A stretch of 64,000 nucleotides of DNA from Octopus vulgaris (taxonomy: Eukaryota): NCBI GenBank assembly GCA_951406725.2, contig OX597831.1:74400001-74464000 (forward strand). Direction: 5' to 3'. The notes beneath the pieces are model-generated. The model did no database searches. It saw nothing but the letters and a program-made list of their open reading frames with translations, and had not been told where the DNA came from. Positions 918 to 43,789 of this stretch are shown here, piece after piece. Positions within the stretch are counted from its first letter, which is position 1, and the number at the start of each line of letters is the position of its first letter. Made by a program: the position numbers and the translations under genes.

Positions 918-1610
918 TATCAGGTCATACCATAAGTTCTGTCCGAAAATTTTGAATGAAGAAAACAAGTGATCAAATGTTATATTTAATTGAAATTTAA
1001 TCATCAATGTACTTTCCCTGATTATCTATGACTTCCTTCCATCAATGTAAAACTCTTTTGGTTTCAAAGCCAGGAAATGTTAGAAAAGCCAGGAAATTTG
1101 CGAAAGTTATGCCCCCCACCAAATGATTCTGTAAGCTACGAAAAAAATGGTAGTCTGAAGGAGCAAGATTCGGGAGAATAAGGTGGATGAGGAATTTTTT
1201 CCCAATCAAGCTCTTCGATCTACTGTGATGTAATCTTTGCAGTGTGGGGTCGTGCATTGTACTGATGAAACATCACTCCTTTTCGATTCACTAAAGTGGG
1301 TCTTTCTTTCTTCAAAGCTTGGTTCAAACGCTCTAATTGCTGACAGTAGACTTGAGCATTAGGTGGTAACAATTCAAAGTGAATTACCCTTTAGCAATCC
1401 CACCAGGTAGAGAGAACCTTTTTCCCATGAAGTTCCCTTCTTGGTTGTTGTCGAGCTGTTTCCCTTTTACCAAGCCACTGTTTACGACGTTTAACATTTC
1501 GATAGAAGATCCATTTTTCGTCACCAGTCACAAGTCTATCCAAAAAGGGTGAAATGAGTTCGCAAGAAAGGAGAGAAGAGCAGTTGTTAACTCTTTTCTG
1601 CTACCATAAA
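918..1610 (-). mobile_element. Degenerate mariner (DD34D) transposase fragment with terminal repeat
   Basis: LVTGDEKWIFY, FHQYNARPH and PNLAPSDYHFFRSLQNHL motifs across frameshifts; TA plus TCAGGTCATACCATAAGTTC terminus at 918. Confidence 0.85.
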
Positions 1611-15744: not shown

Positions 15745-16877
15745 TTGACTTGAGACAGCATTCACCCGAGGTGGGTTGAGCTGGATTCATTCATCCTCAA
15801 TACTGCATCTCTCACAAACGCTGACCAGACCTGGCGATTTGAGTCTAACGACCGCGTGATCTCCAACCACTCCTTATTCCAGCGACGAACGCCGTAGATA
15901 TGGGGGTCTAGGTTGGGTTCCAGATCAGCCTTGACTGTCATCAGCCAGGTTTTTCGTTGTCCACCACATCGTTTTCGCCAACCCTGAAGGGGAGCTGGAG
16001 CAATTGCTTCGTAGATGAATTCTCCTGGTTGACGACGGAGGGCATGACCCAGCCAACGTAGACATCTCGTTAGGATGACTTGTCGGAGGGAGGTGATTCT
16101 GCACTGGTGTCGCACCGAATTGTTGGAGACAAAGTGATGCCATCGGACACGAAGGATGTGGCGTAGACAGAGGTGATCGAAGAATTCTAGTCGCTTAATA
16201 TCTTCCACCGTCATCGGCCATGACTCGTTGCCGTAAAGGGGAATCGTTCGCTCTAGTGCTTGGTAGATCCGTACTTTGGTGGTGCGTCGGATCTCAGATC
16301 TTGACTAGAGTCGTGCACTGAGTCCGTTGAAGGCTTGGCGAGCGAGGTCGATTCGTGTTTTAATGTCAGCCTCACCTTGACCTGTAGCTGTAATGATGGC
16401 GCCAAGGTATTTGAAACTCTCAACCTCTTCAAGAATATCCCCATTGAGGACAATGGGTGTTTTGTCTGGTGGGGCAAAGCCGGCTGTGAGGATTTTGGTC
16501 TTCGAAGCATTGGCTTTCATACCAATCTGCGATGCAACACGCTGGAGCTCATTGATAGCAAACTGGACGTCAGCAAATGTTTCGCCAAGTATCGCAATGT
16601 CATCTGCGTAGTCTAGATCCTTGACGGAAAAGTTGTGACCAACAGTGATACCGGGGGACTCCCTTAATGCATTTGTGGTGATCCAGTCGATGGCGTAATT
16701 GGAAAGAGTTGGCGAAAGAACACATCCTTGCCGAACGCCAGACCATATTTCGAAGGGTTCCGACACTTCACCATACACGTGTACGCGGGATCTTGTTGAG
16801 CGGTAATAAGTTTTGATAAGATTGAGAAGTTTAGGTGGGATACCATCTGCCTGCATGACCTTCCAGAGGATGTCACG
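15745..16877 (-). mobile_element. 5'-truncated RTE-clade LINE (RT and C-terminal region, frameshifted)
   Basis: GVRQGCVLSP, DLDYADD, FKYLG and LRWLGH motifs; (CAAGT)-type tail; direct repeat ATCTATTC at 15737-15744 and 16878-16885 (candidate TSD). Confidence 0.93.
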
Positions 16878-36520: not shown

Positions 36521-36625
36521 TCACAACTTAGATTTGGCTGTTTTTGTGACGTCTATGAAAGGCTTGGGTAATGGATAAAGAGCAAGGCTTCGTTTGAATG
36601 CGACAATGTCAGAGATCTCAATTGG
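36521..36625 (-). CDS. IDE: IDE last coding exon with C-terminal PTS1 (-SKL)
   Basis: Long polypyrimidine tract, then tttcag|PIEISDIVAFKRSLALYPLPKPFIDVTKTAKSKL*; matches IDE FKRGLPLFPLVKP...AKL. Not in the ORF track. Confidence 0.94.
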   Translation of the reverse strand, partial: PIEISDIVAFKRSLALYPLPKPFIDVTKTAKSKL

Positions 36626-37844
36626 CTGAAATTAGAAAAAAAAAAAAAAAGAGAAAAATTTAACAAAATAGAAAACAAAAAAAATTCCAAAACACAAAAA
36701 ACAAACAGAGAAACATTAGTGTAGGCTGTTGATATTGCAAGGTTTTAGAAACTTTGAGTGAACGTGAAATAATTTATTTTTAATGGTTGAACATGAAGTA
36801 GAAAAGTTATAAAGAATAGCATTTAAATATTGGTTGACAAAAACTGTTTGCATTGGAGAAGTTGAAGGCTGCCCCAAAGCCTTTTCTGTTCATTGTTTTC
36901 TATTGAAAGGGTTTGTTTTAGCCTAATGTTTACATGGATATATTTTAAATGTTTCTACTTTGAGTATAATTTAGGGGTTTAATTTATTATCACCTGTTAG
37001 TATTCTGGGTCTAATTTCTGTTAAGCTCAACTTTACCTTTCCTCCTTCCAGGGGTTAATAAAACAAAGCACCAGCCAACGACTGGAGTGCCATACATTAG
37101 CTTAATCATGACAAAATTAATTTCCTAAATTCTTCGTTATCTTCAAAATTAATTGAAACAAAGGCAGTGATTCAGAAATAAAAGAGTTCAGCCTTTCGAC
37201 ACTGATTCACCTGGGACCTCCCCCTGATTCTGTGATGGAAACTTTCTTATCTAAAGTGCTTTAAAATCTTTCATCAAAATTTCAAGTTGATTTTGTTCCA
37301 AACACTGACAGTTATTTTAATAAACCGTTATTTTCAGAATTAATTCAAACCAAAGTGTTAAGTAGGGGCATCCAGACATAGAAACCTTGTCGGACATAGG
37401 AGGCCGATGAAGGGTCCGCTTGTTAGTTGGATCCTGTCAAACCCGCCAACCTATACAAGAATGACAGACAGACATTAAGTGATGAAGAGGACCAAAAAGT
37501 ATATCAACAGAAATACTTTTGAAGGGTTTTTCTACAGATTTTCTATAAAATTCAGAGCCAGCACGGAAAGTTATGCGGTTCCGCATACAAATCTGTCGAT
37601 GTAAACAATACGACTGAAGATAGAAAAAAATCAGGAATTGGTTTAGATGCATACTTCAAGAGTCACTGCTCCTCCACCCTAGCACCACATCCAACCCATC
37701 AACTGTGCACTTGATAGATTGGATACTACTTTGGTAGAATATTAGGGTTGCAAAATGAAATACAAGGTTGTTGTCAGCAATGCAAATAGGGTAAGAAAAG
37801 GGTCAGTTCTTCCTTGCAACTAAAATTGCTGGTTTTGGTATCAG

Positions 37845-39602: not shown

Positions 39603-39763
39603 ATGATGATGAATAAGGTCAGTTTAAATGGTAAAAGGGTTAAGGATTAGCAAACTGGTGGGAAGAAGATAAGAAAGCTAGAATTGACCCCGGGGTCAAA
39701 CAACAACAATGCTACTATTGTTGTTGTTGTTTTTTGTTTAACCCCGGGTCAAAGAAGACTGAC

Positions 39764-39911
39764 CTCTGTCAAAGTTGTACTGTTGACTTGTTATCTCAAC
39801 CCAGTATTTGTAATTCTGTGTGAGGAGTTCCTTGGGAGCCTCCAGGCGTTTCCCTGCCCAGCCTTGGATATTCACGGACACGTCATCCTCGGTAAGATTG
39901 TCCAAGTAGTT
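39764..39911 (-). CDS. IDE: IDE exon (148 nt)
   Basis: tttcag|NYLDNLTEDDVSVNIQGWAGKRLEAPKELLTQNYKYWVEITSQQYNFDR+G|gtcagt; matches YWGEIISQQYNFDR; phase 0/1. Confidence 0.95.
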
Positions 39912-42334: not shown

Positions 42335-42704
42335 CTCACTTGTTGCTGATTAACAAATCTTTGGTGAAACACATTCCAGGCAGGGCCACTTTCAGATTCC
42401 CTTCATCTTTCTTTAGGACAAGAGAATTTAGCTGCCATTTCTAGTAGATCAAGAGACCATGTGCAGGCTCTCACGCTGTTTGACCAATTGCTTGCTGGCC
42501 AGAGATCTTTCTGGTCCTAGCAGACCAAAGGCTATACAACATATGGCAAGTACATTAAGAGAGACCCTAAACACATGAAAGACAACAAATTCTACCTCTG
42601 CGAAAGGCTGCTAGCAGTTTTCCCATGCTGCCAATTCTGCCAGAATCATAACCAGAGTAATAATTCTAGCCATAGGGGCACCGATGAAGGGAACATTACA
42701 AGAA

Positions 42705-42880
42705 CATTATTTACATTTGATGGATATTTGTCTTCATCTTGTTGTCAACACAACGTTTTGGTTCATATACCCTCCAGCCTTCTTCAGGTGTCTTGGGGAA
42801 ATTTCGAACTTGAGTTCTCATTCCTGAGGTATTTTTCGATGTTACCCAAGATTCCGAGTTTGATTCCAGGCAGGGACTTC

Positions 42881-42918
<38 letters not shown>

Positions 42919-43062
42919 TGATAACATCGAAAAATACCTCAGGAACGAGAACCCAGGTTCGAAATTTCCCCGAGACACCTGATGAAGGCTGGAGGGTATA
43001 TCAGCCGAAACGTTGTGTTAAGAACAAAGATGAGGATAAATATCCATCAAATGTAAATAATG
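42705..43062. mobile_element. Inverted Penelope pLTR-like pair in an IDE intron
   Basis: ~140-bp arms at 42705-42844 and 42922-43062, each containing a hammerhead motif. Confidence 0.8.
42974..43019 (+). ncRNA. Minimal type I hammerhead ribozyme (canonical core)
   Basis: GACAC-CTGATGA-A-GGCTG(GAGGGTATAT)CAGCC-GAAA-CGT-T-GTGTT; loopless palindromic stem III, as described for Penelope-associated hammerheads. Confidence 0.75.
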
Positions 43063-43346
43063 TAAATAATTCCTCATCTCTTAAATATAGAAGCTGCATT
43101 ATTACAAGAGCAGGTTACAATTTTTGTGGGGATTTACATGAAAGGTGAGGGGGGAAAATGGAGAAAGACAGTGAAATGTGATAAAAGTATAGAAAGCATG
43201 TGATAACATGAATGAAGTGGTTGCCCTGATGCAGGAAAAACTCCCAACTAGGGCCAGTGAAGGAACCCCTCAGATCCAGGATTATCCTGGCCACCAAAGG
43301 CACAAACCCTCGTCCAACTGTTGCTCTCCAATCTTCAGGCAAATGC

Positions 43347-43435: not shown

Positions 43436-43560
43436 CTTCACAGAATGTAAGAATGCTTCCATCCGTCCTTCTGCATGATCAGCAGAGTGGTCAGTCTGGA
43501 CCATCAGCAGCATTCCCTGGACCCCTCTTGACCTTCGGATACCACTGTGGACCAAGTAAC
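43436..43560 (-). CDS. IDE: IDE exon (125 nt)
   Basis: tcctag|(G)YLVHSGIRRSRGVQGMLLMVQTDHSADHAEGRMEAFLHSVK|gtaaca; matches GYIVFSGPRRANGIQG...RVEAFL; phase 1/0. Confidence 0.95.
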
Positions 43561-43789
43561 CTAGGAGAACAAATATCGATATTAATAAATGAACAAATGA
43601 CAAAACTGAAAAGAATTCAGCCTCAAGGGTCAGCATGTTGAATAACATGTAATGTAGTAAGATTGTGATGAGGAAAAAATTTCATTAATTATATGGAAAA
43701 ATGTAATTATATGGAAGCATCCATCCATTTTTCTCCACCCAAAATTGCTGGGAGGGTCATGGAGGGAGAGTCCTCAGGCACCTCCTCCT

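Follow-up and report, generated by a model that had tools for sequence, protein, structure and literature searches.

A broken hammerhead ribozyme in an octopus IDE intron belongs to a head-to-head Penelope-like insertion and probably decayed neutrally

The 397-bp unit at 42704-43100 of the window (the whole 64,000-nucleotide stretch of Octopus vulgaris DNA analysed here) is one insertion of the 3' end of a Penelope-like element, and one among thousands of such transposon ends arranged back to back. Very likely, it was made by a single 5'-truncated, head-to-head insertion into the gene for insulin-degrading enzyme (IDE), and the hammerhead ribozyme that it places in the sense of IDE was broken by neutral decay. 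The head-to-head architecture of these terminal repeats (pLTRs) is itself already published.

The host gene is identified by an exon at 43436-43561 (minus strand), which matches insulin-degrading enzyme with an E value of 4e-5 and for which 15/15 PDB matches are IDE. Other exons that we take to be IDE-like, from motifs read by eye, lie at about 39750-39896 (minus strand; the next exon downstream of the element, with approximate limits from translation), 38.8 kb, 38.2 kb and 36.5 kb, and the last of them (36524-36631, minus strand) ends in SKL, presumably a peroxisomal targeting signal type 1. Because exon 43436-43561 matches IDE and the later exons lie to its left, the element is intronic, ~335 nt from the 5' splice site of the upstream exon, and its broken arm is in the IDE sense. 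In run X1, a contig of 3,363 nt aligns to just this exon and departs from the window at the exon's ends. Both insertion junctions are present in run X18, where the flanks are ~2% diverged, so the insertion is shared. Elsewhere in the window, frames at 15765-16304 and 1045-1272 (both minus strand) resemble, by eye, an RTE-type LINE end and a piece of mariner transposase.

Repeat search, BLAST and the IDE exon matches confirm the original prediction of two inverted arms of ~140 bp in an IDE intron. The arms lie head to head and point apart; BLAST aligns them at 90.8% over 142 columns, and the repeat search resolves them into two sub-blocks with 91% and 95% complementarity. The inverted, IDE-sense arm (42704-42844, minus strand) has no tail and differs from the family column majority by 9 substitutions in 138 columns. 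The direct, IDE-antisense arm (42922-43063, plus strand) differs by 6 in 139 and is the only one followed by a Penelope-type tail, of 37 nt (43064-43100, plus strand). Between the arms are the 3' half of the family's tRNA-like head (42845-42879, plus strand), which matches the segment upstream of the arm elsewhere in the family, and an (AAT)n spacer (42880-42921, plus strand) of the kind found between head and arm across family copies. Only this half of the head is retained: a B-box variant survives, and the A box has gone through 5' truncation. The unit is flanked by a 9-bp target-site duplication, with the left copy at 42695-42703 and identical letters on the right at 43101-43109 (both plus strand). 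No further family arm occurs within the 64-kb window.

Other copies show where these parts come from. Their order is coding frame, 3' UTR, tRNA-like head, (AAT)n, arm and tail, and the arm lies downstream in 23/30 loci chosen by the endonuclease coding frame. From motifs read by eye, we take this frame to be a Penelope RT thumb and GIY-YIG end. Its first ESM Atlas matches stand at 0.97, with clusters in which PF26215 is found in 90-98% and GIY-YIG in 13-14% of members; Pfam scans of five endonuclease-region frames gave nothing significant. The copies yielded no full-length element: the eight long ones share at most ~1.7 kb, in which no 5' end was found. A head-to-head partner lies within 600 bp at 49/89 family loci, a count that includes the IDE locus, takes one pair twice and accepts some partners that are short pieces only, and exactly one arm is tailed in 52 of the 59 head-to-head pairs with both ribozymes covered. 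We estimate the family at roughly 18,500 arms (2801 x 86/13). One pair of arms lies tail to tail (L079/L080, G000:C1:11300247-11300618), where the sense ribozyme precedes its complement and could fold first.

The IDE unit thus shares with EN+ Penelope elements an inverted 5'-truncated copy, a one-sided tail, a target duplication and a hammerhead in the pLTR. Parts of PMC3846280 and PMC8557442 describe such a layout, including the 9-bp duplication and the one-sided tail, and Pen2a_Av of Adineta vaga, an EN+ Penelope-like element treated there, has the same head-to-head inverted 5'-truncated copy. The EN+ elements with inverted pLTRs in these sources likewise have an optional tail of 30-40 bp at one end, a short palindrome at the pLTR 5' end, and a pLTR downstream of a frame with RT and C-terminal endonuclease; a section of PMC11167929 connects the tail with two start sites for reverse transcription. 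Unlike Pen2a as portrayed in those parts, the IDE copy is without coding sequence, and the octopus pLTR opens with an A/B-box segment and (AAT)n, whereas that of Pen2a has TATA/Inr motifs. Non-LTR retrozymes, according to portions of PMC7229834 and bioRxiv 10.64898/2026.07.22.740005, are also non-coding, PLE-related and equipped with type I hammerheads. However, they form head-to-tail tandem arrays that dimerise and circularise, whereas in the IDE unit the pair is inverted, each strand has a single ribozyme, and head-to-tail tandem units are absent. Self-priming or a template switch in the course of reverse transcription would have produced the inverted arm.

The plus arm carries what is predicted to be an intact minimal type I hammerhead (42974-43019). 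Its core reads CUGAUGA-A-GGCUG...CAGCC-GAAA-CG-UU, with C3 at 42979 and G12 at 43007, and conforms to the conserved CUGANGA, GAAA and UH; there is an extra A after A9, a G10.1-C11.1 pair, a palindromic stem III and a stem I of 4-5 bp. In isolation 9/9 stem pairs can form without penalty, and the palindrome duplex is predicted at -5.7 kcal/mol. The minus arm (42747-42792, minus strand) reads CUGAAGA-A-GGCUG...GAACC-AAAA, with C3 at 42787, and is broken by G12A at 42759 (a CpG), G11.3A at 42762 and C11.5G at 42764, which remove the catalytic G12 and break 2/5 stem II pairs. The architecture and core features therefore agree with what had been proposed from the sequence, namely a Penelope-type terminal repeat bearing a minimal hammerhead with palindromic stem III, all of whose core and stem features are present in the plus arm, and an IDE-sense arm that has lost G12 and has a disrupted stem II. 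The CUGAAGA of the minus arm was rejected as a lesion, since CUGANGA admits any base at position 7 and A7 is frequent in the family, with 18/95 unselected arms carrying it.

These calls rest on published features of minimal hammerheads rather than on Rfam, whose curated hammerhead model matches neither arm, at gathering or at E 10; Rfam scans over the window, five loci and two short stretches returned zero hammerhead or tRNA matches. According to parts of PMC4209133, minimal hammerheads have the same CUGANGA/GAAA/UH core, extra base between 9 and 10.1, G10.1-C11.1 pair, palindromic 15.2-16.2 and short stem I, and pairs of them 100-700 bp apart on opposite strands were already reported there. 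They differ in stem II, which is 5-6 bp in octopus and 7-8 bp in theirs, and the octopus cleavage triplet ends in U. A family-blind hammerhead descriptor run over 336 kb found one motif outside the family, which is not enough to compare strands. Beside one copy of the IDE-element family, at L068:1265 (minus strand), stands a minimal hammerhead motif from a different sequence family.

The lesions belong to this copy. G12A and C11.5G are also read in a contig of run X1 (from depth columns) and so are not assembly errors. The triple change is private, since only 1/18 matches carries all three; it thus arose at the IDE copy, and a subfamily trait was rejected on the same count.

How unusual is a broken sense core beside an intact antisense one? 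From 233 distinct arms we set aside 109 chosen by search and the IDE partner, and 86 of the remaining 123 cover the ribozyme. Among these 86 "unselected" arms, of which 32 are paired with CpG-variant arms and are perhaps older than the average arm, the core is damaged in 37 (22 by substitution alone) and G12A occurs in 7; by set, the broken cores number 15/32 for the CpG-variant partners versus 8/25 and 14/29. Such base rates put the chance of "sense broken, antisense intact" at ~0.19-0.25, which bears out the earlier caution that one case could be chance. At least three ribozyme substitutions are found in 37 of the 86 arms and none in 6, and core damage together with two stem II mismatches in 5/86. 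Whole-arm divergence is 6.5% (minus) and 4.3% (plus), against a family mean of 5.1%.

The original prediction offered selection as the explanation: an intact sense hammerhead would have cut IDE pre-mRNA often enough to favour alleles with dead cores. We give this a slim chance. Its best support is the locus itself, with three private substitutions in the sense ribozyme against 0 in its antisense counterpart, a pattern with a probability of ~0.03 in this direction if the arms are independent, but one picked after the fact among thousands of copies. This asymmetry is on the strong side and counts against neutral decay, as does the placement of the three lesions within 6 nt, only one of them at a CpG, while the element's other CpGs are mostly intact. 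IDE is also expressed (exon contig depth 197 in run X1), and tandem retrozymes are depleted from Xenopus introns, according to part of bioRxiv 10.64898/2026.07.22.740005. However, that case concerns dimer-competent tandem arrays and, as presented in that part, comes without a strand test, and the genome-wide behaviour of G12 points the other way.

G12 is the G of a CpG, at which deamination yields either G12A, which kills the core, or its mirror change C11.1U, which leaves a G-U pair and keeps G12. Exact 34-mer counts across the genome give 291 G12A versus 441 C11.1U (P 3e-8 against equality), with 2801 for any CpG-site dinucleotide, and the 86 arms hold 7 and 30, respectively. G12A is thus rarer than its mirror, whereas selection for dead cores should make it commoner. 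Sequence context or active source variants may account for the 291:441 skew, which could mask a small excess due to selection; as an alternative to a context effect, source elements may have tolerated the G-U pair but not the loss of G12. Four other CpGs give mirror ratios of 10:11, 16:7, 9:18 and 18:11. Non-CpG core positions have changed no faster than positions outside the ribozyme, whether at G (4/168 vs 53/969) or at A (4/421 vs 64/2905). Within IDE (window 36501-64000) the observed/expected CpG ratio is 0.40-0.55, versus 0.80-0.92 in 1-36500; this drop is likely the footprint of gene-body methylation, in line with the gene-body methylation of expressed octopus genes described in part of PMC9476566. 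On the neutral reading, G12A would have come about through methyl-CpG deamination, and the two stem II changes would be unselected point mutations.

A bias in core integrity between sense and antisense copies was the point on which the original prediction had itself staked the idea of selection, and in a small sample there is none. Interiors of eight dynein/myosin genes of known strand (1,441,700 bases) hold 15 arm pieces, 11 with a scorable ribozyme, the other four (2 sense, 2 antisense) being without a full one. Cores are broken in 3/5 sense arms (1 G12A) and 3/6 antisense arms (2 G12A; Fisher P 1.0), and two core-intact sense arms persist in these introns. Eleven arms make a weak test, which excludes near-complete bias only and leaves room for a modest one. 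With the IDE copy and one weak match added (L222, sense and broken, which passed the E-value cut in one search but not in another and is counted in this extended figure only), the tally becomes 5/7 sense versus 3/7 antisense (P 0.59); the pair L184, which adjoins the 3' end of a dynein gene and carries G12A in both arms, was kept out of the strand count because it may lie outside the gene. The first dynein gene (387 kb) has no arm, and the dynein/myosin interiors together hold 11 ribozyme-covering arms versus ~9.5 expected from the rough estimate of 18,500, so arm density matches the genome average and gives no sign of intronic depletion. Nor are the partners of G12A arms more often intact (6/16 broken versus 4/16, P 0.70). 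One dynein intron contains a solo, host-sense, core-intact arm (L262:5679-5823) whose stem III has two palindrome-keeping changes; for genuine cleavage of pre-mRNA, this arm is a stronger candidate than the one in IDE.

Predicted folding also speaks against selection. In a head-to-head pair, whichever strand is transcribed, the complement of each ribozyme would be made first and the sense ribozyme last, and the pre-mRNA would zip into a ~140-bp duplex that would block the catalytic fold regardless of the state of the core. The IDE-sense RNA is predicted to fold as a hairpin of -216.8 kcal/mol (z -24.5). With the complementary arm transcribed first, folding the ribozyme would cost ~60 kcal/mol: forcing its stems just as the ribozyme has been completed takes a predicted 63.8 kcal/mol in the IDE sense and 59.7 on the plus strand, and 61-76 kcal/mol in a natural pair with all cores intact (L022), all values being for equilibrium folding that ignores proteins, splicing and editing. 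A lone minimal hammerhead would, in addition, need a same-sense partner. Sections of PMC4209133 report single minimal hammerheads with no detectable cleavage and dimers of low activity in vitro, parts of the review PMC6765202 likewise give no cleavage by lone hammerheads and little by dimers in vitro, and in part of PMC11167929 an anole element has no reads ending at the cleavage site. Given the predicted trapping and the weak cleavage in vitro, there was probably little for selection to act on, and because a long hairpin would, by prediction, sequester the sense ribozyme anyway, ordinary mutation is the likelier cause of its damage. The proposed selection against self-cleavage of IDE pre-mRNA is thus disfavoured on three counts: under-represented G12A, no strand bias and a ribozyme predicted to be trapped.

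Neutral change need not mean independent CpG decay. Error-prone repair, or a reverse transcription error at insertion, could have produced two or three of the lesions together, as the span of 6 nt (42759-42764) and the lack of any other copy with the same combination might suggest. We judge such a clustered event unlikely, since G12A (7/86) and G11.3A (8/97) are each common alone, and 17 other copies have C11.5G, either by itself or together with G12A.

The pair does form a long predicted double-stranded hairpin that ADAR could edit, as had been anticipated: 95/111 adenosines are paired in the predicted fold, and the duplex would serve as an ordinary ADAR substrate. The accompanying search for A-to-G changes over the hairpin yielded one, at 42739, from a single RNA contig of run X1 with a depth of 3.4, which reads from unique intron flank through the arm to 42814 and has 11 differences. 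Two of these are flank changes common to DNA runs, and the A-to-G, on the IDE strand, falls at a paired A; the remaining 8/11 are unseen and, by elimination, lie mostly in the arm, masked by family contigs. A plausible account of this pattern is hyper-editing of the hairpin, a hint from one contig. Recruitment of the hairpin as an ADAR-edited regulatory element of the intron, acting on IDE splicing or expression, would be compatible with the shared insertion, its closeness to the 5' splice site and this contig. We nevertheless consider it highly improbable. The arms have diverged to the family average and so show no visible constraint; in octopus, inverted repeats are strongly edited as a general rule, a form of housekeeping according to part of PMC5625713; and the editing hint comes from that one shallow contig with most of its differences undisplayed.

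The same family has a further feature. Its terminal repeat opens with a tRNA-like A/B-box head (for example in L153-L182 and L185-L192), with the A box at +8 in 37/72 heads and T54 at position 54 in 27/30 heads with a strict B box. Like tRNA-derived SINEs, the family has A and B boxes at tRNA spacing and copies whose 5' ends fall at the head: of 105 pieces reaching it, 60 begin within -15..+5 of its first base, 17 further upstream and 28 inside. ARAGORN reports no tRNA by default, and at a 90% threshold 12/58 calls are family heads; Rfam tRNA models gave no match to heads in the window, five loci and two short stretches. These features suggest that short Pol III transcripts may be moved by the Penelope enzyme in a SINE-like manner. 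A rival explanation for copy starts at the head is fold-back at a small palindrome, which immediately precedes the head at the spot where the majority of short copies start, as in other pLTR 5' ends covered in part of PMC3846280. The head-to-tail unit has no TTTT in L164 or L186 and one in L185. The coding body in L185, L186, L187, L188, L190 and L192 has 1.1-1.4 kb of sense strand without TTTT. Avoidance of TTTT as a sign of whole-element Pol III transcription was, however, unsupported, with 0-1 runs in eight copies versus 0.3-1.6 expected (dinucleotide model, P 0.2-0.8, the eight related copies being non-independent).

The nearest known case to a tRNA-like head with a hammerhead is the schistosome Sm-alpha. 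Sm-alpha and Sj-alpha retroposons, as set out in parts of PMC6765202, are likewise short dispersed repeats in which a type I hammerhead comes after a promoter of the Pol III type. However, in those parts the Sm-alpha hammerhead is canonical and often in tandem, with no autonomous partner named, whereas the octopus head and ribozyme are the 3' end of a Penelope-like element, with copies head to head. A tRNA-headed pLTR was not found in the literature searched, including the available parts of PMC13282606 and PMC8967140, which make no mention of one; Repbase, Dfam, paper supplements or the 1994 octopus SINE paper may hold one. We tentatively propose, as a possibility we rate at somewhat under even, that a tRNA-derived Pol III promoter in the terminal repeat fires head-AAT-hammerhead-tail RNAs, which the Penelope machinery would insert as self-primed palindromes, and that this geometry would silence the ribozymes in host transcripts and seed ADAR substrates.

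So, what does one broken ribozyme mean for the octopus? Selection on an intronic ribozyme, if upheld, would be a host defence against a parasite's catalytic RNA; the evidence favours ordinary decay. In each intronic head-to-head copy, a sense and an antisense ribozyme have the same age and serve as an internal paired control, through which selection against intronic hammerheads becomes directly testable once annotation is added. Should the tRNA-like head be a working Pol III promoter, SINE-like hammerhead repeats of the Sm-alpha type would gain a link to a specific autonomous partner, and one origin of the long duplexes underlying hyper-editing in octopus would be identified. If the wider proposal is true, the family would be a Penelope-mobilised, ribozyme-bearing SINE on the order of ten thousand arms. 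Because their palindromic geometry would silence each ribozyme in host transcripts, its copies could sit in introns unselected, seeding perfect ADAR substrates across octopus pre-mRNAs.
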